Assembly: GCF_013009345.1 (NCBI RefSeq)
Contig: NZ_JABELE010000007.1
Span: 166,704-178,614, forward strand
Source of the DNA: Acinetobacter geminorum
GTDB lineage: Bacteria > Pseudomonadota > Gammaproteobacteria > Pseudomonadales > Moraxellaceae
Reading direction: 5' to 3'
Length of the DNA stretch: 11,911 nucleotides
Shown here: positions 1,914 to 11,911 of the stretch, in pieces
Layout of the letters: each line of letters opens with the position of its first letter
Numbering within the stretch: the first letter of the stretch is position 1
Translations under genes and position numbers: made by a program
Notes under the pieces: generated by a model
Told to the model about the DNA's origin: nothing
The model's input: the letters and a program-made list of their open reading frames with translations, nothing else
Database searches by the model: none

Positions 1914-2905
1914 ACAGTAGCCATTGCACGCACTTTACCAGCAGTCACATTTGTTGCTGTTTGATAGTAGCGAGCAGTCATCGGTACGTTATATTGAATT
2001 GTCTGGTTAGAAGACAATGTACCTAAGGCTAATTTGTCACCTTTTTTGATGACCTGATTTTTATTTTGATAATTCCAGAGTAACTGTACACCTACGCCGT
2101 TTGCTTTTTCAGATGCGGCAGCCGTATTTGCCAATACCTGATTGTTTGTTCCATCTTGGGTAAAGTCGTAAGTTAAACTAATGAGATTTTTCTCTTCGTA
2201 ACCTGTTGGGTTGATACCGCCATTACAGAGAATGTTCATATCAAAGGTTTGTTCACCTTGAGTAGAACCAACACCTTTGAAGCCAGCCTTTGTAACTGTT
2301 GGTAATTGTACAACTTTATTAATATTACCTTGAATTTCACATGAAGATGATGCAATTGTAATGGCATTGGCATTGACAGTACTTGTTAAGAAGGGTTGAT
2401 TAGGAAAGCCCCGAATATAATAACTACTATACCTGCCTGGTACTAAGGTTCCAGAACCTGTTTGTGGGGCAATTTTAATAATTTCTACCACAAAGTAACC
2501 TGATGCTAAATAACGTCTACCAGATATTCCTCCACGTACATAAGGATAATAGCCAGAAAAATTAGTATTATTCTCGGCTTCACGATATAGGCGAATACCA
2601 ATACCGGGAATATTAGTAGTATAAATGCTATTGCCTAAAGGGCTTAAAGGATAAGCTTGGGTTAATTCTGCAACTACTGCATCACTATAGTCACAGTACC
2701 AAGCTTCTGTACTAGTACGACTAATAGGAAAAGTCGCTTTTCTTAAAATAGCACCGACTGGGTCGCTTGGACGCACAACAACACGCCCCACAGCCATAAG
2801 GACGTCATTTTTTTCATAATCATATATACGACAGGCAGCCTTAGCCTCGCCATAAATCCCAAGACCAGCGGTAAATAGAGCACCCGTTAATAATATTCTT
2901 TTCAT
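1895..2905 (-). CDS. Fimbrial tip adhesin-type subunit (two-domain: N-terminal putative receptor-binding domain plus C-terminal pilin domain)
   Basis: 336 aa, about twice pilin size, and the last gene of the operon. Its ATG overlaps the usher stop (ATGA at 2902-2905). Signal peptide MKRILLTGALFTAGLGIYGEAKA. The C-terminal half has the pilin signature SSCEIQG..VQLPTV....F.MNILCNGG and a C-terminal beta strand ATVTIEYD with penultimate Tyr. Confidence 0.8.
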   Translation of the reverse strand: MKRILLTGALFTAGLGIYGEAKAACRIYDYEKNDVLMAVGRVVVRPSDPVGAILRKATFPISRTSTEAWYCDYSDAVVAELTQAYPLSPLGNSIYTTNIPGIGIRLYREAENNTNFSGYYPYVRGGISGRRYLASGYFVVEIIKIAPQTGSGTLVPGRYSSYYIRGFPNQPFLTSTVNANAITIASSSCEIQGNINKVVQLPTVTKAGFKGVGSTQGEQTFDMNILCNGGINPTGYEEKNLISLTYDFTQDGTNNQVLANTAAASEKANGVGVQLLWNYQNKNQVIKKGDKLALGTLSSNQTIQYNVPMTARYYQTATNVTAGKVRAMATVTIEYD

Positions 2906-5460
2906 TTGCAGACAGCCTCAGTCATTACCATGCTTTGTTGCTTATTTTGCAACTGATTACTGATGTTGTACTCAACAGAACAACGTTCATTGCTTTCATC
3001 GCCCCATTTCACATAGAGACGATCTTGAGCAAGTGGAGTACGTAAGTAAATCATACTACCTTGTGCAACAATACCGACAGCTTCATCTTTTTGGTTAAAG
3101 ACTTGAGCTGCAAACGGTAAACTATTGCCATCTACAGTTTTACTATTAATGTAAACTGCATAACCAGTTTTAGTCGCAAAATCTACTTTAGCAATTGCGC
3201 CAGCAAAAGGTGCGATACGTTGACTTGTTTCTTCAAGCTCTACTTGGCTCGACATTTCTTGTGGGTCAAGGGTAATGTCATTAAGACGGTACGGAGTAAC
3301 ATAAGGAACTACCGCATAACCCGCTTTATTCACGCTCAAACCAACAGCATTATTAACTTTTGCTCCTGCAGCTTCTGGCGCATGCACAAGTACCATCGTT
3401 TGGCCTTGCTCAGGTCCAAATAAAATACCTTCTGAGTGTGCAACCACACTACCAGTTAAGCTAACCATTGCTTGTTGGTAAGAATCAGCCACACTATAAG
3501 AACCACCAACAGTTGTATAGTTGGTACGATAACGTCCATTTACGTTAAATGATGGATTTGAATAGTCCTGATGTGACATTGAAGCGCCGTAACTAAAGCG
3601 ATCTCCAACCATACCACTTGCACCAACAGTACGACTGTCTTCAGAAGCAGTAACGTTAACGTTAACTGAATTCTTTTTGAAATCAATCGGGAACGATAAT
3701 GTCATTAAATATTCAGTATCGTGTGTTTGATTGGTTGAGCCATATTCAACTTTACGGTTAATTGCAGATAAACCATAAGTTAAACCATGGAAGTTATTAC
3801 TGTAACCAACCTGATATTGTTTAGTACTTTCACTACGGTTCCAATAATCAACCCAAGAACCTACTACATAGAAGTTACCCCAACCTTCAGGTAAACCTTG
3901 GTTTAAGGTAATTTGGAATTCACTACGTTGACGACCAGCAGAGTAGGTATTAATACCTTTTTCTTCAAAATCACGAATCTGTAGAGCATCACGTAATTTA
4001 TAGAAGTTTTCTGTTGAGTAACGATAAGCTGCTAGTGTTAAGTTTGTGTTGGTTGGAGTAATTAACTTGCTATAACTTAAACGGAAACTTTGTCCTGACT
4101 GTGAAGACTGTTTTTCAAATTCAGCTTCAGAGTGGGTTACATCTAACGCCACGGCACCAATTGGTGTAGCAAAAGCGGCACCCAACAGTATAGCGGCATA
4201 ATTTTCAGTTGCTTGTATGCCTGTATAACCTGTTAGGTAATTATTAATCCCTTGTTGATATTTACCTTGAACAACCCAAGGATCAATATCAATATCTGAA
4301 TCACGGAACTGACCAATAGTTAAAGCATAACGATTCATGCCAGGACGAAGCATCTGCACAACAGATGCATAAGGCACAGCAAATTTCTGTATTTCCCCAT
4401 TCGCTTCGATAACAGAAACTTCAATTTCTCCACCAAAACCAGTAGGGTAAAGGTCATTAATTTCAAAGTTACCTGGTGCTACTGTTGTTTGATAGATAAG
4501 TTGGCCTTGTTGACGAACTTCAACTTTTGCATTGGTTTTAGCATTACCACGAATACGTGGAGCATAACCCACCATACTATTTGGTAACATACGATCATCA
4601 CTTGAGAAATCAATACCGCGATAACCATATGAATCAAATATTTCGCCGTTTGTAAAATTATCACCTAGTGTTAAGACACCTCGGTATTTCGGAAATGCTC
4701 TTTGTAAATATGTACTCGTTTCTTCGTAGCTTGACTTAGATTGATTTTCAGCAGGGGTATCCTGCCATTGCCACTGACCATTATGACGTAATTGCCAACC
4801 ACCTAAATTCAACCCAGCAGTCACTCCCATAAACGCATTTGATGTTTCGCGTATATCGCCAGATTGATTAAAAGTCTTATAAGCACTACCGTTATAAGAT
4901 AAAAATCCAGCATTAATACCACGATCCCATACACTTGGGTCGACATAGCCTTGCGCATTTTTTTGCAAAGCAACTTGCGGAATAGAAATATCTACACGTA
5001 AACGAGAGGTATCAAACTCATAAAATGCATTTTCAACCCACTCTTCAATTTTATAACAACTATTATTTTCTTTTTGAAGGGTAGTGTGTTTAGACAAAAC
5101 ATCTTGTTTAACGCCGTACTCAAGCAGGTTTGTTCCTGTGAAACAGGTTACAGCATTTTTATTTGGATCTAATGCTTTAAAGAACATACGACGTTTGCCA
5201 AACCATTGGCCATTTACATAAACGTCAACATTATATTCACCTGGTAAAACAGGATTACCATATTTAAAACGTGAAATATCAACTTTTTGAGCATCACCAA
5301 TTAAAAAAGCAGAATCAAATTCAGCTTCCACTGGTGCACTCGCGGTTGTTTCTTCAGCATGCACGAATACGGGCATTGTCATTGTGACAACACCAGAAGC
5401 CAAGTAGTAACAAATATGGCGTTTTAATAATTTATAAGATTCTTGCCTTTTTTTTGGCAT
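2902..5460 (-). CDS. Fimbrial outer-membrane usher (PapC/FimD family)
   Basis: 852 aa, with a signal-like N-terminus ending VFVHAEE. Usher N-domain motifs FDSAFL and GEYNVDVYVNG, a long beta-barrel-type sequence rich in G/Y/S/N, and a C-terminal Cys pair (ERCSVEY...EAVCK). Positioned between the chaperone and adhesin genes. Confidence 0.93.
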   Translation of the reverse strand: MPKKRQESYKLLKRHICYYLASGVVTMTMPVFVHAEETTASAPVEAEFDSAFLIGDAQKVDISRFKYGNPVLPGEYNVDVYVNGQWFGKRRMFFKALDPNKNAVTCFTGTNLLEYGVKQDVLSKHTTLQKENNSCYKIEEWVENAFYEFDTSRLRVDISIPQVALQKNAQGYVDPSVWDRGINAGFLSYNGSAYKTFNQSGDIRETSNAFMGVTAGLNLGGWQLRHNGQWQWQDTPAENQSKSSYEETSTYLQRAFPKYRGVLTLGDNFTNGEIFDSYGYRGIDFSSDDRMLPNSMVGYAPRIRGNAKTNAKVEVRQQGQLIYQTTVAPGNFEINDLYPTGFGGEIEVSVIEANGEIQKFAVPYASVVQMLRPGMNRYALTIGQFRDSDIDIDPWVVQGKYQQGINNYLTGYTGIQATENYAAILLGAAFATPIGAVALDVTHSEAEFEKQSSQSGQSFRLSYSKLITPTNTNLTLAAYRYSTENFYKLRDALQIRDFEEKGINTYSAGRQRSEFQITLNQGLPEGWGNFYVVGSWVDYWNRSESTKQYQVGYSNNFHGLTYGLSAINRKVEYGSTNQTHDTEYLMTLSFPIDFKKNSVNVNVTASEDSRTVGASGMVGDRFSYGASMSHQDYSNPSFNVNGRYRTNYTTVGGSYSVADSYQQAMVSLTGSVVAHSEGILFGPEQGQTMVLVHAPEAAGAKVNNAVGLSVNKAGYAVVPYVTPYRLNDITLDPQEMSSQVELEETSQRIAPFAGAIAKVDFATKTGYAVYINSKTVDGNSLPFAAQVFNQKDEAVGIVAQGSMIYLRTPLAQDRLYVKWGDESNERCSVEYNISNQLQNKQQSMVMTEAVCK

Positions 5461-5518
5461 AACTAAGTCCGCCTACTCACATAATAGGTGCTTAAATTTA
5501 TTAAAAAGATAAATCTGA

Positions 5519-6253
5519 TTACTGAAGTTTTATTTGGTGTTCGACTCGACCACCATAGTCATTGACATTCATAAAACTCATATCTTGAAGATTGCCATTC
5601 TTAAGCTGAACAGACTCTTCAGAAAAAGGTTTAATCATTAAACCTTGAGGTAATAAATCAACTTTTTTATCACCTGCCTTTTGGTAAACAGAAGTCATCG
5701 TAATGTGGAAAGGAGTTGGATTTTTTACCGTTAAATTCTGACCAGATTTAACCCATTGAAGCTTATCTGCTGCTAAATTCGCATCTTCTTTAATTGAAGC
5801 CGGACGATAGAAGAATTTGATCCGGGAACGAATTGCAAGTTGTAAGAAGTTATCAGGTGTCGTATCTGCATTTTTTGAGGTAGGTCTTGGTGGAATATCC
5901 AAAACGTTTAACCACAAAACAGTTTCTTGCTTCTGGTTAAATTGAGAAGCATTTGGAAGGGCAGTAATACGAAGCGTCTGACTTTTTGTCGCTTCAACAC
6001 GAGAAATTGGAGGAGCAATCATAAAAGGAACTTTTGATTGATCCGGAGTACTTTTTGGATCACCTTCATCAATCCAAGCTTGGACAAGTGCTGGTTTTGA
6101 ACCGTTATTGCTAACTTGTAGCGTAACTTCTCTAGCATCCGACGGATAAATTACACGGGTGCCATGAATTACAATTTCTGCTTGAGCGGCAGGAGCAGCA
6201 ACAGATGAAGCAAACGCCAAACCTAACAAAAAATTATAACTGTTCAATTTCAT
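5519..6253 (-). CDS. Periplasmic fimbrial chaperone (PapD/FimC family), start moved to the internal Met
   Basis: The ORF track starts at 6337, but MKLNSYNFLLGLAFASSVAAPAAQA (ATG at 6251-6253) is a proper signal peptide giving 244 aa, the normal chaperone size. The upstream 28 codons overlap a terminator hairpin. PapD-like motifs present: IVIHGTRVIYP, QAWID, PPISRVEA..SQTLRI, VLWLNVLDIPP, LQLAIRSRIKFFYRP. Confidence 0.9.
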   Translation of the reverse strand: MKLNSYNFLLGLAFASSVAAPAAQAEIVIHGTRVIYPSDAREVTLQVSNNGSKPALVQAWIDEGDPKSTPDQSKVPFMIAPPISRVEATKSQTLRITALPNASQFNQKQETVLWLNVLDIPPRPTSKNADTTPDNFLQLAIRSRIKFFYRPASIKEDANLAADKLQWVKSGQNLTVKNPTPFHITMTSVYQKAGDKKVDLLPQGLMIKPFSEESVQLKNGNLQDMSFMNVNDYGGRVEHQIKLQ

Positions 6254-6294
6254 TTTTCGAGTTCTCAACCAAGAAAGATTCAGGAAAGTGCTAC

Positions 6295-6330
6295 ACAAAA
6301 CAGGGTTTCCATGCGGACATAGAAACCCCG
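6295..6330 (-). terminator. Intra-operon hairpin/attenuator after the major pilin gene
   Basis: On the minus strand: gggtttc (6328-6322) / gaaaccc (6309-6303), 7-bp stem, 12-nt loop, followed by tgtttt. This is the usual arrangement in chaperone-usher operons, keeping pilin mRNA in excess over chaperone/usher mRNA. Confidence 0.55.
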
Positions 6331-6341
6331 CTATCAATTAA

Positions 6342-6875
6342 TTATTGATAGATAATTGTGTATTGAACAGAAGTAGTTACTTTACCAGCAGTAGAAGCAC
6401 CAGTTGCATAGTATTCAGCATAGTAGTTAAGGTCAGCACTTGCACCTTCAGCTACGTCAACCCATTGAGAGTTAGCTTGAGCACCGTTTGCACCAGCAGC
6501 AAGTACTGGGATGAAGTTGTTGTTGCTACCTAAAAGTTGAACGTTAACGTTTTTAGCACCAGTAGCGTCTGTGTTAAGTAAACGACCAGTATTAAAGTCA
6601 ACGTTAGCACCTGGTTCGAAGTAAGTAGCTACTTTACCTTCAGAACAGTTAGCTAATTTAATTTGGAAAGGAGTACGACCAGCAACATCCCCAGCAACAG
6701 CTAAAGTTTGTTTAGAAACAGTTGGAAGAGTAACTGTCAAGTCTTTACCACCGTTATTAACGATGTCACAAGTTTTGTCTGTAACTAAACCATTAATTGT
6801 AATTGTACCATCAGCAGCTTGAGCATTCGCAATCCCTACAACCGAAAGAGCAGCGATCAAAGCAAGTTTTTTCAT
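6342..6875 (-). CDS. Major fimbrial subunit (type 1 / FimA-family pilin)
   Basis: 177 aa, signal peptide MKKLALIAALSVVGIANAQA. Mature N-terminus ADGTITINGLVTDKTCDI (donor-strand motif plus first Cys), second Cys in KLANCSEG, C-terminal strand TSVQYTIIYQ with penultimate Tyr. First gene of the operon. Confidence 0.9.
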   Translation of the reverse strand: MKKLALIAALSVVGIANAQAADGTITINGLVTDKTCDIVNNGGKDLTVTLPTVSKQTLAVAGDVAGRTPFQIKLANCSEGKVATYFEPGANVDFNTGRLLNTDATGAKNVNVQLLGSNNNFIPVLAAGANGAQANSQWVDVAEGASADLNYYAEYYATGASTAGKVTTSVQYTIIYQ

Positions 6876-7366
6876 AGTGTTTTCTCAAAGGTCTGGATAA
6901 AAGTTTAATTCCTTACTTTTCCAGTGTTTGACATCTTGAAAAGTAATGCCGCAATATTAACACTTCTTAAACAAAATGCAAACTACATCACATTATTTTT
7001 TCATATTTTTAATTTTAACACACAATTTATTTGGAATGTAGAGCTAGTATTTACAACTTATGCAGCTGTTTATAAAAGTTTTTTTGTTTTCTGAAAGAAA
7101 GATGCTATGTAAAAAAGTAAGTTACATAAGAACACTATGAAAATTGAAAAGAATTAAACAATTTATGTGAAAAATAAGCTTAAACTCTTAGAATACAATT
7201 ATATAGAATAAACTGTGTATATGTATACAAAAAAATAGACAAATAGTCATTTTTGATGAAAAAGAGCTAACAAATCATCAATTCATAAAAATGTGCGATG
7301 AATTCGACAAATCACTCTTTTATCCAAGCTTACTAATGAAATAAGCTCAAATATTCTAGTTATAAG

Positions 7367-7657
7367 TTAGTGATAATTGATAAGTACAACCTTGTGATTA
7401 GAACCTATACTTTCAATACTAGTGTCCATTTTCTCAGTGTGTTGAGCTAATTTAAAAAGACTATCTTTATTTAAATATTCATTATCAAGTTTAATATTTA
7501 AATTATTTACATCAACACATTCTATCTCACTATGTTCTCTTGAACACGTATCTTCAACAATATTTCCTCTTATCATTATTGTGTTATTTGCATAACAAAA
7601 TAGTGGGGAAGCGGAAAGCACCATCAAAACAAGAAGTTTAAATATATTATTTTTCAT
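7367..7657 (-). CDS. Small (96 aa) signal-peptide protein with pilin-like N- and C-termini; possible internally deleted pilin remnant
   Basis: ATG at 7657 with AGGT about 10 nt upstream. Signal peptide MKNNIFKLLVLMVLSASPLFCYA. The mature N-terminus NNTIMIRGNIVEDTC matches the pilin pattern TIxIxGxhxxxTC of the neighbouring major pilin (GTITINGLVTDKTC). The C-terminus KVVLINYH resembles the pilin F-strand with penultimate Tyr. About 73 mature residues is too short for a full pilin Ig fold. Very AT-rich, so coding status is uncertain. Confidence 0.4.
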   Translation of the reverse strand: MKNNIFKLLVLMVLSASPLFCYANNTIMIRGNIVEDTCSREHSEIECVDVNNLNIKLDNEYLNKDSLFKLAQHTEKMDTSIESIGSNHKVVLINYH

Positions 7658-7980
7658 TTTATATACCTATTTATAAAATAGCTTATATATAGTTGATACA
7701 TTATTTTTAATTTAAAAACAATCATTAAGCTTAAAATAATAAAAATTATTAATTTTCACGTGATATAAATCACATTAACCATTTTAAATAATGTAATAGT
7801 TAAAATTCTTAAACCATATTAATCCATGTAATTAGTTAAAAATTAAATAATTAATATAAATTATTGATATTTAATTAATTTTTAAAAAATAGATTAATAA
7901 ATCAACTAAATGATATATGATTAAACATATAATTTACTTATTTGATTTATAATTTATGTTTCAAAATTATTACCGAGAAA
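7658..7980. other. Extremely AT-rich tract (putative curved / nucleoid-protein-bound regulatory DNA)
   Basis: Hand count: 41 G/C in the 300 nt 7681-7980 (about 14% G+C) and 13 G/C in 7801-7920 (about 11%). No ORF of 60 aa or more on either strand. Confidence 0.7.
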
Positions 7981-8421
7981 TAAAATATGGATTTTAATAA
8001 AAATGTGACCAAATATACATTATCGAAGCAATGTGTAATTAAATTTGCTTTATATTGTAGATCCTGAGTATATAAGATCTAATGAATTAGAATTTAGCAT
8101 ACACTTTAAATATTTTAGGAAAATGAACTAACGAAATATAATTCGTAGATTCCTTTGGATTTAGGTAGGAGAAAAGTTCAATAAAAATCAAACAAGCGAT
8201 TATTAGCCGAACCTAATCATAATTTCTATTTAATTAGATTTATGAATACTATTTATTATGCATCAATAGCAACTTCAGAAGATGCTAGTGCTGAATTTAA
8301 TTAGAATAAAGATTCATTCCACATAGCTAAAACGTACCACAATAGCTAGAAAGAGAAATAAGTACTACAAACAAATGAAGGATAGCTACCAAGCTATGGG
8401 TCAATATTGAATTATATGACT

Positions 8422-8505
8422 GTTCGTATAATGTGATGCACAGATTATGTTACTAAGCCCCAGTGAGAACATTGTTAGTCTCACGGGGCTTTTTAACATC
8501 AATCT
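8422..8505 (+). repeat. Left copy of the 84-nt direct repeat (junction with chromosomal DNA)
   Basis: gttcgTataatgtgatgcacagattatgttactaagccccagtgagaacattgttagtctcacggggctttttaacatcaatct. 83/84 identical to 11828-11911; the only difference is T8427 versus C11833. Sequences immediately upstream of the two copies are unrelated. Confidence 0.95.
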
Positions 8506-8517
8506 GCATTATGCGAA
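8423..8517 (+). other. About 95-nt imperfect (forked) hairpin carrying inverted dif-like half-sites: putative ssDNA attP and/or packaging signal
   Basis: Pairing checked by hand. 8423-8433 pairs with 8507-8517 (XerC-arm-like TTCG(T/C)ATAATG). A 7-nt bulge follows at 8434-8440. 8441-8446 pairs with 8501-8506, with a 1-nt bulge at c8500. 8447-8452 pairs with 8494-8499, followed by 2 mismatches. 8455-8461 pairs with 8485-8491, with a bulge at a8462. 8463-8468 pairs with 8479-8484, closing a 10-nt loop. Confidence 0.65.
8457..8494 (+). terminator. Rho-independent terminator-like hairpin forming the tip of the att/packaging hairpin
   Basis: gcccc(a)gtgaga - 10-nt loop - tctcacggggc followed by ttttt (8490-8494). 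In the circular phage map it sits just after the last + strand ORF, as the f1 packaging-signal hairpin doubles as the gene IV terminator. Confidence 0.6.
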
Positions 8518-8533
8518 TTTGAAGCCGAGGCGG

Positions 8534-8578
8534 GGAGTCCACGTCTTCTAATGGTGGACTCTAGTCCGAAATTTCGGA
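8534..8578 (+). other. Ff-type (+)-strand origin core: nick-site hairpin plus adjacent Rep-binding palindrome
   Basis: ggagtccacgt (8534-8544) and gtggactct (8554-8562) are identical to the f1 origin core as I recall it (GGAGTCCACGTTCTTTAATAGTGGACTCTTGTTCCAAACTGGAACAA). Same 8-bp stem and the same 11-nt loop length (gtcttctaatg versus GTTCTTTAATA). A second inverted repeat, tccgaaatttcgga (8565-8578), follows immediately. Confidence 0.75.
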
Positions 8579-8582
8579 ATTT

Positions 8583-8795
8583 TTATAGATCTTTTGCGTT
8601 TCTTACAACTACTTTTCCATGTGCTGATATCTCAACATTTTCTATAGCTTGATCAAGGATGATGTGTACAAGCTCACTATCCTTGATCGGCTGTAGATTT
8701 TTATTGATCAGAATTTTATTGAGCTCTACACACTTCTTTCGTAGAGATTCTTGCTCTTTGTCATTTAAACGAACTGTTACTGCCATTTTCGTCAC
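8583..8795 (-). CDS. Small DNA-binding regulator, probably ribbon-helix-helix (Arc/CopG-like) phage repressor
   Basis: 70 aa, divergent from rep. The N-terminus (M)AVTVRLNDKEQESLRKKCVELNKIL fits a beta-strand followed by helix A, and DSELVHIILDQAIENV fits helix B. The listed start at 8795 is GTG; an ATG at 8786 (MAVTVRL, 67 aa) is an alternative. No good SD for either. Confidence 0.55.
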   Translation of the reverse strand: MTKMAVTVRLNDKEQESLRKKCVELNKILINKNLQPIKDSELVHIILDQAIENVEISAHGKVVVRNAKDL

Positions 8796-8915
8796 ATTTT
8801 CGGGTTATTAACTTGCATACAATATTACTTGTATATCTGTTATATGTGCTTGCTATTCATGTGTAATTGTATTAAATTCCGCTTAATGTTATTTGTATAC
8901 ATGCGTAATTAGACC
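8796..8915. promoter_or_regulatory. Divergent control region between the regulator and rep
   Basis: Candidate + strand promoter TTGCTA (8850-8855) - 17 nt - TAAATT (8873-8878), about 35 nt upstream of the rep ATG. Repeated word TTGTATA at 8829-8835 and 8893-8899, and its near-complement cATACAA at 8816-8822, forming an inverted repeat atacaa-N6-ttgtat. These are plausible operators. No experimental support. Confidence 0.4.
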
Positions 8916-9800
8916 ATGCTAGATCATATTTGCATAAATGCGCCTTTTGAATCCAGCTTCTACTCAGTAGATGCGGAAGGGCGTTATTTTTTTGTAGATA
9001 TCGATCTTCACAGTATAGAAATACCGCTTGCTTCTCGTTCTGTTCATAAGAATGACGATGGTTCAATTTCTGCTGCTGCGTTATTCCATCCGTTTGAGTC
9101 GGTTCCGACTCATTACACTGGTATGGCAATGAAAGTTTTTTTTGATTCTTCGTATGAACCTTTTGTACAGATCAAGGCTTCTCCTGCGAAATTGCTGCAA
9201 GGGCATAATGTCTTTGGCAGCGACAACATAGAGCAGGGTGCTATGGAAATGATCGGCTTCTTACATGAAGCTTATCCGCTTCTTGCAAGGATGCTAGATT
9301 GGCCTCGTGCATGGGTTTCACATATTGATGTGACTTACTCAGTACGATTGAAAGACCAGAACACAGCTAAAAAAGTTTTGGATTTCTTGAGCAATGTCAG
9401 CAATGGCCAGACTCGTTTAAGTAACAAGCGTTTCGACAGTTCAGTATATTGGGGAGGTCAGACTTCAAGACTTGTGAATCACAAGTGTTATATGAAGCAT
9501 GACGAATTTATCGCTCAATTTGAGGAGTATAAGCAACTTGCAAAGAAGAACGATAAAGCAGCTCAACGAGTTGTTGATGTCATGTCCAATTCGGATCTGA
9601 TTAACTGGACTGTCGGTCTTTTACGTTTTGAATCACGTTTAAAAAAACGTTGGCTTGAACGTAATGGAATTCCTACCAATCTCAGTTATGAAACCTTTTG
9701 TTTAGGGGCCTCTTATGCTCGACCGTGGATTATTTTTGTAGGCATGTTAACTGCCTTCTTCATTGTCACTGGACATTATCGAGGGGGTAGTAATGATTAG
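8916..9800 (+). CDS. Rolling-circle replication initiator, filamentous-phage gene II (gpII / Phage_CRI) family, C-terminally short
   Basis: Motifs shared with f1 gpII as I recall it: HPFESVPTHYTG (f1 HPFESLPTHYSG), IKASPAKLLQGHNVFG (f1 IKASPAKVLQGHNVFG), NVSNGQT, LLRFESRLKKRWL..GIPTNL (f1 LVRFEARIKTRYL..GLPLNL). Candidate catalytic region SSVYWGGQTSR....YMKHDE. It is 294 aa versus 410 aa for f1 gpII. An in-frame stop lies 6 nt upstream of the ATG, so the start is fixed. Confidence 0.9.
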   Translation: MLDHICINAPFESSFYSVDAEGRYFFVDIDLHSIEIPLASRSVHKNDDGSISAAALFHPFESVPTHYTGMAMKVFFDSSYEPFVQIKASPAKLLQGHNVFGSDNIEQGAMEMIGFLHEAYPLLARMLDWPRAWVSHIDVTYSVRLKDQNTAKKVLDFLSNVSNGQTRLSNKRFDSSVYWGGQTSRLVNHKCYMKHDEFIAQFEEYKQLAKKNDKAAQRVVDVMSNSDLINWTVGLLRFESRLKKRWLERNGIPTNLSYETFCLGASYARPWIIFVGMLTAFFIVTGHYRGGSND

Positions 9801-10083
9801 AGGATTAATATTTTTATTGATGTATGTAGGCGAGAAATTCTTAACTACTGCATTTAAAAAATTATTGGCTGGTGCAGGTTTGGGACTTGTTTCATTTGCA
9901 ATTTCACAGTCAGTTTTTTCAATTTTACTTAACTATGTAAACAATCAATTTCAGCAGCTTTCAGGTCTATTTTATTTAATTGACCTTGCGGGGGTTGATG
10001 TTGCTATCAGCTATATTTTGTCTGCAATTTCAATACGCATAACAATGAACGCGGGCAAATTATCGATTAGGAAACTACAATAA
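9793..10083 (+). CDS. Small hydrophobic virion/assembly protein, pVI / Ace-like (96 aa from the ATG)
   Basis: The ORF track starts at a TTG (9763). ATG at 9793 is preceded by GAGGGGG (9781-9787), giving MIRGLIFLLMYVG.... It has several hydrophobic segments, is similar in size to f1 pVI (112 aa) and CTXphi Ace (97 aa), and sits immediately upstream of the pI/Zot gene with a TAATG stop/start overlap at 10081-10085. Confidence 0.65.
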   Translation: MIRGLIFLLMYVGEKFLTTAFKKLLAGAGLGLVSFAISQSVFSILLNYVNNQFQQLSGLFYLIDLAGVDVAISYILSAISIRITMNAGKLSIRKLQ

Positions 10084-11567
10084 TGTTATACGCTATCATT
10101 GCAAAGCCTGGTCAGGGGAAATCATATTTTGCTGTTGTTCGTATGTATGAAGAGCAGCAAAAAAATTTAGAAAATCTTAAAAAGAATGCTCCTATTTTTG
10201 AAGAAAATAGAAAGTTACTAGAAGATCGTGATCTACTAAAACGTGATTTTACGTATACCTATGAGCTAGGTGATAAAACACTTCAAAAAACCTCTAATCA
10301 TGAAGATTTCGATGTGTTGGAGGATGCGGAGCAGTTTGAGGAATATTTCGAATATTACTTTTTTTATAATAAATATATTGAGCAGATTACCAAAGAGGAA
10401 GGAATTGCATTAACTGCATTGCTTCCAGTAAGGCAAATTTATTCAAATATTAACGGTTTAAAAATTGCAGGTGTTTTGCCATTTCCAGATATTGACTGGC
10501 GTAAAACTCCGATGGGTTCTATTCATTACATTGATGAGATTCGTAGACGTCCTCCTTACAAATGGGAAGGCCGAGTACCATCTCAAGATCCAATTATTTT
10601 AGGTATGTCTGAGGTGCGTCATACCGATAAAGATGTATGGCTTATTTCTCAAGATGCAGAAGATTTAAACTATTCGCTTAGACAGTTAATCGATAAGCTG
10701 TATTTTGTTAAAAGACCACCTCAAAACCCACAGGCTTGCGGTATTTATGTATTCGATAAATATCTTAGTCGCCCACGTGATGCAGCAGATTCACAACGCG
10801 ATCCGAAGAAGTATGTTGATTATTTTCTGTTAGTTTATAAAAAGAAATTTCAACGCATGTATGTTAGTGCATCTTCTCATACATCAATGAAATTCAGGAT
10901 TTCGCCAAAAGTATTTGCATACATATTTTTGTTTTTTGCCATATTAACGATTGCCATTGTCGGCTTTATGAAAATACCTATTTTTCAAAGTTTTGGCAGT
11001 GCAATTAAGCAAATGACAGGACAGGAAAAAGATGCATTTAGTCAATTACAGTCGGGACCTCAAGTTGCTGATGACAAGTCGAAATCTATGGCTGACAAAT
11101 TAAAATATGAAGCTGAGTGCGGTACTTTAACACCAGAACAATGTGCTGATTTGAAGAATCCAGAAGTCAGAAATAATCAACTACAGCAAGTAAATGATGT
11201 TCGTATGGAGACAATTGCAGTCAAGTACAATCCGAATAGGCCTTATGATGTTGATACTTCAAAGATTGAGTATCAAGTGACGTCTAAGCCTGTATTTGCG
11301 GGCTGTATGAAGAAAAAAGGTAGATATGTTGCTTACACTGAACAGGGCACAATTTTGCATGATGTGAGCCAGTCAGACTGTGCGAAACTGATTGAAGATA
11401 ATGACCGTCCGTACAACTACTTTAAGCAGCAATCACAAGGTTTTTCGCAACCACAGCAGGCACAACAATTGCCACAGCAACCACAACAAGCTGATTACCC
11501 GTCTCGATATAAAGAGGCTGAAATTATCGCTAAGTACGAGGCAGCAAAACAGCAAGGCTTAATTTAA
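10083..11567 (+). CDS. zot: Filamentous-phage assembly ATPase, pI / Zot family
   Basis: N-terminal Walker A AKPGQGKS (residues 7-14) and Walker B HYIDE (148-152). DVWLISQD matches f1 pI DIIFLVQD. One TM helix VFAYIFLFFAILTIAIVGFM (277-296) is followed by a ~198-aa C-terminal domain. AGGAA lies 10 nt upstream, and the start is coupled to the previous gene. Confidence 0.92.
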   Translation: MLYAIIAKPGQGKSYFAVVRMYEEQQKNLENLKKNAPIFEENRKLLEDRDLLKRDFTYTYELGDKTLQKTSNHEDFDVLEDAEQFEEYFEYYFFYNKYIEQITKEEGIALTALLPVRQIYSNINGLKIAGVLPFPDIDWRKTPMGSIHYIDEIRRRPPYKWEGRVPSQDPIILGMSEVRHTDKDVWLISQDAEDLNYSLRQLIDKLYFVKRPPQNPQACGIYVFDKYLSRPRDAADSQRDPKKYVDYFLLVYKKKFQRMYVSASSHTSMKFRISPKVFAYIFLFFAILTIAIVGFMKIPIFQSFGSAIKQMTGQEKDAFSQLQSGPQVADDKSKSMADKLKYEAECGTLTPEQCADLKNPEVRNNQLQQVNDVRMETIAVKYNPNRPYDVDTSKIEYQVTSKPVFAGCMKKKGRYVAYTEQGTILHDVSQSDCAKLIEDNDRPYNYFKQQSQGFSQPQQAQQLPQQPQQADYPSRYKEAEIIAKYEAAKQQGLI

Positions 11568-11625
11568 ATTTCTTCTCTTTGATTACAAAAACCGTCTATT
11601 TGATGTAACGTAGCTGTATAGAAAA

Positions 11626-11709
11626 GTGTCTTCAGGGGAATTGAGACACATCGAGTAAACACTTAAATCTTGTACAATTTTTGCGTGTCTCAAGGCGTAG
11701 TCTAGACAC
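11626..11709. repeat. Two inverted repeats built from the same hexamer: GTGTCT-N12-AGACAC and GTGTCT-N13-AGACAC
   Basis: GTGTCT at 11626-11631 / AGACAC at 11644-11649; GTGTCT at 11685-11690 / AGACAC at 11704-11709. They lie in the 159-nt gap between zot and the 32-aa ORF. Function unknown (operator pair, or ssDNA hairpins of a minus-strand origin). Confidence 0.8.
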
Positions 11710-11726
11710 TTTGGCGGGTGGGATAT

Positions 11727-11825
11727 ATGACAAATGATGATATTGCTTTAGTACTTTTTTTGATTTTTATCTTTTTTGCAGCCCTCTACTATGTTTTGAA
11801 ATCCATTAAAGAAACTTCGCTCTGA
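11727..11825 (+). CDS. 32-aa hydrophobic peptide, candidate small coat protein (pVII/pIX/pVIII-like)
   Basis: Not in the ORF track (too short). ATG at 11727 is preceded by gggtggg. Translation: MTNDDIALVLFLIFIFFAALYYVLKSIKETSL, with an acidic N-terminus, a 19-residue hydrophobic core and a Lys-containing C-terminus. Stop at 11823-11825, 2 nt before the repeat. Short ORFs are easily spurious. Confidence 0.4.
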   Translation: MTNDDIALVLFLIFIFFAALYYVLKSIKETSL

Positions 11826-11827
11826 AA

Positions 11828-11911
11828 GTTCGCATAATGTGATGCACAGATTATGTTACTAAGCCCCAGTGAGAACATTGTTAGTCTCACGGGGCTTTTT
11901 AACATCAATCT
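11828..11911 (+). repeat. Right copy of the 84-nt direct repeat, truncated by the window edge
   Basis: Same sequence as 8422-8505, offset 3,406 bp, with C at 11833. It starts 2 nt after the stop of the 32-aa ORF. Confidence 0.95.
11863..11900 (+). terminator. Second copy of the same terminator-like hairpin, directly downstream of the 32-aa ORF and zot
   Basis: Identical sequence to 8457-8494 (offset 3,406). Hairpin plus T5 about 40 nt after the stop at 11825. Confidence 0.6.

Follow-up and report, generated by a model that had tools for sequence, protein, structure and literature searches.

Introduction

In the filamentous phages of the Ff group (f1, M13, and fd), the initiator gpII binds the dyad region lying 3′ of the nick site on supercoiled replicative form (RF) DNA, cuts the (+) strand through Tyr197, and leaves a 3′-OH that primes synthesis, while the origin sequence, including the left arm of the hairpin, acts as the terminator at which the displaced strand is cut and circularized. 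Conservation of this origin among gpII-encoding phages has been known since IKe was sequenced. Here, we analyzed a stretch of 11,911 nucleotides (nt) from Acinetobacter geminorum (contig NZ_JABELE010000007.1, positions 166,704 to 178,614 of the forward strand), referred to as the window and numbered from its first base, which carries an integrated filamentous phage (inovirus) element, and we compared a segment of it at 8534-8578 with the origins of the closest described relatives. The comparison indicates that this segment is very probably the core of the prophage's rolling-circle origin for the viral (+) strand, which is homologous to the origins of Ff and IKe; by analogy, a gpII-type protein would initiate replication, and free genomes would be released between successive origin copies.

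Filamentous phages of Acinetobacter have been characterized only recently and are linked to biofilm and virulence traits. Their prophages have already been described in tandem arrays and are thought to use the host XerCD (PMC11209303). A layout of attP, origin, regulator, and rep with tandem copies is likewise known from CTXphi, which is released by replication between successive origins; the CTXphi initiator RstA, however, is of the Rep_trans and not the gpII family, and its origin, 167 bp long and HU-dependent, has its G|T cut site in another hairpin (PMC4439123).

Results

An Ff-type origin hairpin in the window

Reading the window bases directly, we found GGAGTCCACGT at 8534-8544 and GTGGACTCT at 8554-8562. 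They frame a candidate (+)-strand-origin nick-site hairpin on the + strand (8535-8561), with the stem arms GAGTCCAC (8535-8542) and GTGGACTC (8554-8561) and the loop GTCTTCTAATG (8543-8553). The stem has 8 bp with 100% complementary arms and the loop 11 nt, exactly as given, bases and positions alike, in an earlier note made on this DNA from its letters. That note had also claimed a match to the f1 origin core, and the real fd record (J02451, origin sequence GTTGGAGTCCACGTTCTTTAATAGTGGACTCTTGTTCCAAACTGGAACAA), which we checked directly, bears it out: the window at 8534-8562 is identical to the 29-nt fd core at 25 of 29 positions overall and at 7 of 11 in the loop. The stem GAGTCCAC/GTGGACTC is that of fd/f1 and also of IKe. 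When folded as single-stranded DNA (ssDNA), the origin segment forms two stem-loops, as does the fd origin. The earlier note had proposed a comparison with IKe as well, and here the two stem-loops annotated as viral-strand origin in the IKe record (X02139, 6554-6580 and 6582-6599) correspond to the two in the window, the first being GAGTCCAC-N11-GTGGACTC with the loop TATGTTTAATA and the second a dyad.

To put numbers on this resemblance, we calculated from the binomial distribution that about 2e-7 matches of at least 25/29 are expected in 2 x 11.9 kb, and we searched for the pattern of the 25 fd-shared bases, which occurred once in the window and in 0 of 200 shuffles with three mismatches tolerated. 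The resemblance to the f1/fd core is thus far beyond chance, rather than the chance-level match that the earlier note had allowed might emerge. In a blastn search of 50,697 phage records (2.3 Gb of phage DNA), the segment 8500-8600 matched solely Ff phages or f1-origin-carrying records, at the viral-strand origin, and Acinetobacter phage M02. Rfam gave no match across 7000-11911.

The predicted cleavage site

We then located the position at which an initiator would be expected to cut. In the fd record, the "origin of viral strand synthesis" is the A at 5782 that opens AATAG and directly follows CTTT, and the cut site of pII has been given as TTCTTT|AATA (bioRxiv 10.1101/015511). Since both point to the same position, the homologous nick in the window is predicted at T8549|A8550 on the + strand, where the loop reads GTCTTCT|AATG and agrees with the nnnYTYT|AATR consensus of 107 related contigs described below. 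The earlier note had put the nick between 8552 and 8553, which by homology is 3 nt too far 3′. The two bases following the predicted nick are not universally AA, because in one clade of Acinetobacter-type origins (L004, L010, L011, L020, L029, L050, L060, L061, L075, L076, L102, and L107) TGGTG replaces TAATG at the predicted cut (GTCTTCT|GGTG or GCTTTCT|GGTG); the Reps of this clade are ~70-73% identical to the M02 Rep.

Conservation of the hairpin and its linkage to gpII-type Rep genes

To assess how widely the hairpin occurs, we scanned IMG/VR with the stem alone (GAGTCCAC-N11-GTGGACTC). The pattern was present in 111 contigs, in 107 of which the loop fitted nnnYTYT|AATR (or ...T|GGTG in the one clade); the exact window loop was found in 32 contigs. 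A gpII-type Rep was encoded on the strand defined by the loop in 100/107 hairpin contigs, mostly 305-635 nt downstream, and in the window, too, rep starts 354 nt past the hairpin on the same strand. The Reps of the hairpin contigs range from 32 to 100% identity to the M02 Rep and from 33 to 100% to fd gpII, and most contigs without a linked gpII-type Rep have the hairpin near a contig end. The linkage was also apparent in the opposite direction. Among 60 loci picked by Rep homology alone and having enough upstream sequence, 53 carried a loop-motif hairpin within 1.2 kb upstream, compared with a single match in 63.7 kb downstream of the rep start as control, and several of the seven misses have a hairpin whose loop escaped the motif used. 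A predicted cut site in the loop, an adjacent 3′ dyad, and a gpII-family gene linked on the same strand, the features that mark an Ff/IKe-type origin, are thus all found in the window, and they support the earlier note's assignment of the window + strand as the viral strand.

More distant relatives retain the loop and change the stem. In Dulem virus 65, the loop is kept within a compensated stem (GGCACAC-CGCTATCTAATG-GTGTGCC); one contig has another altered but compensated stem (GTACGAC / GTCGTAC) around a retained loop; and in Inovirus D_HF5_61 the stem arms are swapped (AGTGGAC-TCTCTTTAATA-GTCCACT). Since these relatives keep the loop while changing or swapping the arms with compensation, the role of the stem is structural, and a kept loop in an exchangeable stem is the pattern that would be expected of a cleavage site displayed in the loop. 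A full-text search with the origin strings returned only papers listing vector or f1-origin sequences and nothing on non-enterobacterial phages, and a literature search on nicking-site conservation gave marginal matches only.

When bacterial genomes were scanned with the stem, the matches listed included genuine origins in Acinetobacter, Psychrobacter, other Moraxellaceae, Pseudoalteromonas, Colwellia, and Zobellella, together with exact f1 origins lacking gene II in unrelated assemblies; at least ~40 chance matches with neither the loop motif nor a Rep served as a negative control. The f1 copies come with f1 flanks on short contigs of Streptomyces, Bacillus, Nocardia, Runella, and various metagenome-assembled genomes (L124, L128-L130, L137, L138, L142, L146, L148, L149, and at least ~30 more), and such f1 origins without gene II in public assemblies are almost certainly phagemid or vector contamination. 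Their existence raises the question of whether the window hairpin could itself stem from a cloning vector or, failing that, be a chance inverted repeat. However, the window differs from f1 at four loop positions and throughout both flanks, the segment lies in a native prophage with its own Rep, and it is 89-100% identical to other Acinetobacter phage origins. The blastn search, the shuffles, the IMG/VR contigs, and the comparison with an intact prophage (below) refute both chance and contamination, to which, with an expectation of ~2e-7, we attach a negligible probability.

A variable dyad downstream of the hairpin

In addition to the hairpin, a perfect 14-bp palindrome (TCCGAAA/TTTCGGA) lies at 8565-8578, 3 nt past the stem. 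The earlier note had recognized it directly after the hairpin, and its position matches that of the second stem-loop of f1 and IKe. Among the relatives, this second element keeps its position and varies in sequence, with TCCGAAATTTCGGA, TCTCAAATTTGAGA, TCCCAAATTTGGGA, TGACAAATTTGTCA, and TCCGGAATTCCGGA among its variants; f1 has TGTTCCA-AAC-TGGAACA at this place and IKe has GTTGCA-TTT-TGCAAC. Across 49 distinct origins, compensatory change was seen at 5/7 pairs of the dyad with 95.6% of cells paired, a level of covariation reached by 0/500 shuffles. We also compared the palindrome type with the neighboring sequences by adjusted mutual information (AMI), which was 0.49-0.63 with the Rep cluster and 0.26 with the flank upstream of the hairpin. 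These patterns suggest that the dyad at 8565-8578 is likely the site at which Rep binds and by which specificity is set.

The inverted repeats could instead be mainly transcription signals, with 8565-8578 and the T-run behind it forming an intrinsic terminator that shields the regulator/rep module against read-through. A terminator scan flagged 8565-8578 followed by ATTTTTATAG on the + strand, the IKe record itself labels its origin stem-loops "pot. transcription termination", and the covariation fits a hairpin and a dimer-binding site equally well. However, the stem is weak (5 pairs by the scan, 3 of them G-C), the dyads of f1 and IKe occupy the same offset with no T-run, the first hairpin likewise has no T-run and has a conserved 11-nt loop, and a conserved loop in swappable stems points to a cleavage site in that loop. 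We therefore regard a mainly transcriptional role as unlikely, and it is possible that the palindrome has a secondary one as a weak terminator.

There are hints only as to which part of Rep may read the dyad, and they point to the C-terminal portion that the window Rep lacks. As an observation on the Rep sequences, residues 261 to the end gave an AMI of 0.51-0.63 with the dyad type, slightly above the N-terminal parts. Separately, a profile search of PDB sequences found no homologue; its only match was a weak one, at E 0.1, between the C-terminal region of gpII (A2 profile 253-352) and a MarR-type winged-helix regulator (PDB 2fxa).

The window prophage is a deletion derivative with a truncated Rep

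We next examined the initiator gene of the window element. The gene at 8916-9800 on the + strand encodes 294 amino acids (aa) with a match to PF05144 (E 4e-50) and 36% identity to fd gpII, in keeping with the clear gpII homology described in the earlier note, and its Tyr192 aligns with Tyr197 of fd gpII at a position that is invariant in the alignment. Only residues 1-256 (nt 8916-9683) are genuine Rep sequence, matching the 407-aa Acinetobacter protein P0001 at 100% identity and the M02 Rep at 95%; residues 257-294 are 38 unrelated read-through residues. The C-terminal G2P_X_C domain (PF05155), which full-length relatives have, is absent from the window Rep. The Rep homologues retrieved by homology search were all at least 83% identical, and the exact fused 294-aa protein is on record nowhere else. 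An intact cognate initiator encoded in cis was thus not found in the window copy, whose Rep stops at residue 256. The earlier note had taken the 294-aa protein for the native initiator, which does not hold; since the protein is a deletion product and not native, the in vitro nicking assay proposed with it is ill-founded.

The nature of this deletion was revealed by L316, a 195-kb contig of GCA_039887275.1 with the same host flank, which was found via the 494-aa Zot-like protein of the element. Window 3240-9683 corresponds to L316 1-6444 at 99.98% identity and window 9676-11911 to L316 9595-11829 at 99.9%, with 3.15 kb of the intact prophage (L316 6445-9594) missing at a junction at 9676-9683 that shows a short CCAAT microhomology. 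The window element is a 3,406-bp internal-deletion derivative of a 6,563-nt L316-type prophage, and the L316 comparison replaced the alternative that the element is a hybrid of two phages with this simple internal deletion. The deletion took the C-terminus of Rep together with genes for 107-aa, 89-aa, and 506-aa proteins (ssDNA-binding/gV-like, coat, and adsorption/g3-like functions), and left attP, the origin, the putative regulator, half of rep, the pVI-like gene, and the Zot-like gene. It looks recent, given the 99.9-99.98% identity that window and L316 share beyond the deleted segment.

In L316, identical origin hairpins lie at 5296 and 11859, 6,563 nt apart, and both the hairpin and the palindrome are the same as in the window. 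The second of these hairpins belongs to a second element of ~2.1 kb that encodes only a small open reading frame (ORF), a full-length Rep, and a 107-aa protein, so that L316 has full-length Rep in both the intact prophage and the adjacent element. The right end of the L316 array is a canonical dif (ACTTCGTATAA-TGTATA-TTATGTTAAAT). Window position 11911 corresponds to L316 11829, and by this homology the next origin hairpin is expected ~30 nt past the end of the window.

Given these losses, the origin may be a sequence-intact fossil in a copy that undergoes neither replication nor packaging, which would leave the hairpin without a role in the strain today. The truncation of Rep at residue 256 with the loss of PF05155, the absence of the gV-like, coat, and g3-like genes relative to L316, and the lack of any other record of the exact fused protein all speak for such a fossil. 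On the other hand, the intact L316 prophage and its neighboring element have exactly this hairpin and palindrome, so that any cognate Rep produced in the cell would be expected to work on the window copies in trans; helper replication of origin-bearing defective genomes is established for Ff miniphages and for RS1, the satellite of CTXphi (PMC4439123); and the 99.9% identity to L316 outside the deletion suggests a recent event. We consider the fossil explanation possible, if rather improbable. That the prophage is a deletion derivative in an apparent CTXphi-like array bears on whether the strain can make phage or only a helper-dependent mini-genome.

Minimal elements of ~2.0-2.3 kb, composed of attP, origin, a small opposite-strand ORF, and a full-length Rep (plus a 107-aa ORF in L316), were also observed elsewhere. 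They occur as separate contigs of 2.1-2.3 kb (L015, L017, L022, L031, L037, L056, L073, L074, and L094), as a tandem array with a 2,040-nt repeat (L054, hairpins at 2474, 4514, and 6554), and in L316 at 11746-~13830, in the interval between prophage and dif.

The attP site and its relation to the hairpin

Upstream of the origin, the window carries a forked-hairpin attP with two inverted dif-like half sites (8423-8517, + strand). Its inverted arms are at 8423-8433/8507-8517 (XerC-type) and 8447-8461/8485-8499, the latter including the XerD-type arms at ~8447-8452/8493-8498, and they enclose a 7-nt bulge, TGATGCA, without which the site reads as the dif-like TTCGTATAA-TGCAGA-TTATGTTA. The ssDNA fold of 8410-8600 has an energy of -38.4 kcal/mol (z -7.4). 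Two inverted dif-like half sites forming a forked hairpin in (+) ssDNA are what characterizes integrative mobile elements exploiting Xer (IMEX) of the CTXphi type.

A second attP copy at 11823-11911 (+ strand), an 89-nt direct repeat of 97% identity at a spacing of 3406, marks the beginning of the following array element and breaks off where the window stops. Its differences from the first copy are confined to the XerC arm and flank: the left attP has a host-type XerC arm in which T8427 is mismatched in the stem, whereas the internal copy has a phage-type arm in which C11833 restores perfect pairing. This is the difference expected if XerC exchanged strands at ~8433/8434, and the left Xer site of the integrated prophage seems to be a hybrid. 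The earlier note had described an Ff-type replicon coupled to a Xer-type integration site; the description is correct, with a gpII homologue and an adjoining dif-type site, although as an architecture it is not new.

The attP stem ends just 17 nt short of the hairpin, and in many relatives a ATTATGCGAA arm is also found directly upstream, so that the hairpin might be a part of the integration or packaging machinery (an accessory arm of the Xer attP, a packaging signal, or a minus-strand origin) and not serve (+)-strand initiation. Yet the same hairpin is the mapped or annotated viral-strand origin in Ff and IKe, which do not integrate, and among the contigs the sequence upstream of it varies widely while the hairpin is constant. 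Moreover, loop type and palindrome type gave an AMI of 0.46-0.63 with the Rep cluster, against 0.26-0.27 with the attP-side flank. Taken together, these comparisons make a role in integration or packaging very unlikely.

The same hairpin upstream of Rep_trans initiators

Four contigs (L065, L098, L103, and L125) that have no gpII gene carry the same hairpin and dyad 436-816 nt upstream of a Rep_trans gene (PF02486) in the same orientation. The Rep_trans assignments have E 3e-22 and 6e-18, and the hairpin loops are GTTATCTAATG, GCTATCTAATG, and ATACTTTAACA; in L065, the hairpin is at 1360 of the reverse-complement strand and Rep at 2134-3582 of that strand. A remnant of this arrangement is found in L131 (Acinetobacter sp. 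A47). One origin type thus appears to be linked to two Pfam Rep families. Aligning gpII profiles (of 5 and 64 sequences) with Rep_trans by hhalign yielded nothing beyond a C-terminal alignment that fell short of significance (E 0.03, probability 1.5%), and BLASTP of the gpII and Rep_trans C-terminal domains found nothing.

We put forward, tentatively and with some doubt, that the Ff-type nick hairpin is a shared, portable origin module not bound to one initiator family. If both families do cut the hairpin, heterologous helpers could mobilize defective elements such as that of the window, with specificity coming from the variable dyad alone, and gpII and Rep_trans would share a mode of nick-site recognition across a very deep divergence.

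Other features of the window

The left part of the window holds a minus-strand chaperone-usher fimbrial operon and a DUF4882 gene, and the filamentous-phage element runs rightwards from ~8417 in the order attP, origin (8534-8578), a 70-aa ORF, the gpII-type rep, a DUF2523/pVI-like gene, and a Zot-like gene. The 70-aa ORF (8583-8795, minus strand) belongs to PHROG 5642 of unknown function (E 4e-26), has no Pfam match, and sits where CTXphi has its repressor gene rstR. The DUF2523 gene (9763-10083, + strand; PF10734, E 4e-7; PHROG 1242) encodes a pVI-like minor virion protein, and the last gene (10083-11567, + strand; PHROG 197, E 4e-42) a Zot-like (pI-type) assembly ATPase of 494 aa, an identical copy of which is encoded in L316-L318. 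Between the fimbrial operon and the prophage, 7000-8400 is very AT-rich (18-24% G+C). A 96-aa ORF at 7367-7657 on the minus strand has a signal-peptide-like N-terminus and no family match.

Discussion

A proposed route of replication

On the basis of the homology described above, and by analogy with f1, we suggest that a gpII-family initiator would bind the dyad at 8565-8578 on supercoiled duplex DNA and cut the + strand in the loop of the hairpin 8535-8561 at T8549|A8550 through its active-site tyrosine, Tyr192. The host polymerase would extend the 3′-OH rightwards across the putative regulator gene, rep, and the genes for morphogenesis until the next copy of the hairpin is reached, where the initiator would recut and ligate and so free an ssDNA circle. 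As the prophage is integrated in what seems to be a CTXphi-like array next to dif, this next copy would be the origin of the adjacent element. With the prophage integrated and what seems to be a hybrid Xer site at its left, free genomes are expected to arise by replication from origin to origin as in CTXphi (PMC4439123), and within such an array replication from the first origin to the second would yield a circle of 3,406 nt with a regenerated forked-hairpin attP. This circle would lack coat genes and would be made only where full-length Rep is supplied; the sequence-intact origin would have to rely on a Rep acting in trans, for which the most plausible source is a neighboring element with full-length Rep as found in L316. 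The sequences themselves show the homology, the synteny with rep, the conservation and covariation, the truncation, and the array in L316, whereas how Rep binds, where exactly it nicks, which way synthesis runs, how it ends, and that Rep comes in trans are inferred.

Several points weigh against the origin assignment and its mechanism. The predicted nick coordinate derives from alignment, and the truncation of the cis-encoded Rep makes the activity of the window copy uncertain. The second origin and the helper Rep are known from one related genome, L316, the window ending ~30 nt short of the expected hairpin. Palindrome type and Rep type do not correspond perfectly, in that Rep clusters at ≥90% identity include members with two or three kinds of palindrome and palindrome type correlates about equally well with the DNA separating the origin from rep (AMI 0.45-0.53, as against the 0.49-0.63 of the Rep cluster). 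The palindrome and its T-run were flagged as terminator-like. In addition, the AT-rich enhancer of f1 (domain B) has no separate counterpart at the window origin, because a coding region begins 5 nt past the palindrome, and the published descriptions of Acinetobacter filamentous phages (PMC11209303, PMC12285184) locate no origin.

Our assignment overturns nothing, and what it adds to these two descriptions is a precise origin location and a predicted nick for Acinetobacter filamentous phages. It also provides a signature by which inovirus origins might be annotated and the viral strand oriented, namely a GTCCAC-type stem, an nnnYTYT|AATR loop, and a variable dyad 2-4 nt further on, and the comparative set distinguishes a cleavage hairpin that stays invariant from a second, variable element, the probable determinant of specificity.

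Comparison with known systems

The window origin shares with the core (domain A) of the Ff origin the 8-bp stem, the 11-nt loop, and T|AAT at the cut, followed by a dyad 2-4 nt past the stem, and in both the origin lies on the viral strand upstream of a gpII-family gene whose catalytic tyrosine is conserved. It differs from Ff by its four loop substitutions and by a dyad of 7+7 with no spacer and another half-site (7-3-7 in f1); it has neither a separate AT-rich enhancer nor an evident third (delta) repeat. Its setting is also different, as it lies between a Xer attP and an opposite-strand gene in an integrative element of an Acinetobacter host. IKe (and I2-2) have the same pair of stem-loops; the IKe Rep is ~60% identical to fd gpII and only ~38% identical to the Acinetobacter Rep, and IKe does not integrate.

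Ff miniphages and defective interfering genomes resemble the window element in having an internal deletion, a retained origin, and a need for helper-supplied Rep and virion proteins. Unlike them, the window element bears its deletion in a chromosomal prophage and keeps Zot-like and pVI-like genes, and its dependence on a helper is presumed.

Acinetobacter phage M02 (OQ693633; Af group) has the same hairpin, a one-base variant of the palindrome, and an attP-origin region ~90% identical to that of the window, in the same layout of attP, origin, small ORF, and rep. In contrast to the window element, which has a different morphogenesis module, the M02 genome is complete at 6,243 nt and encodes a Rep of 406 aa. 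With CTXphi and RS1, finally, the window element shares the order of attP, (+)-strand origin, opposite-strand regulator, and rep, and an attP that folds into a forked ssDNA hairpin. The L316 array, with a canonical dif at its right end and a short element that has rep but no coat genes, also parallels the tandem or mixed arrays of CTXphi, in which dif is recreated on the right, the minimal ~2.0-2.3-kb elements being similar in layout to RS1.

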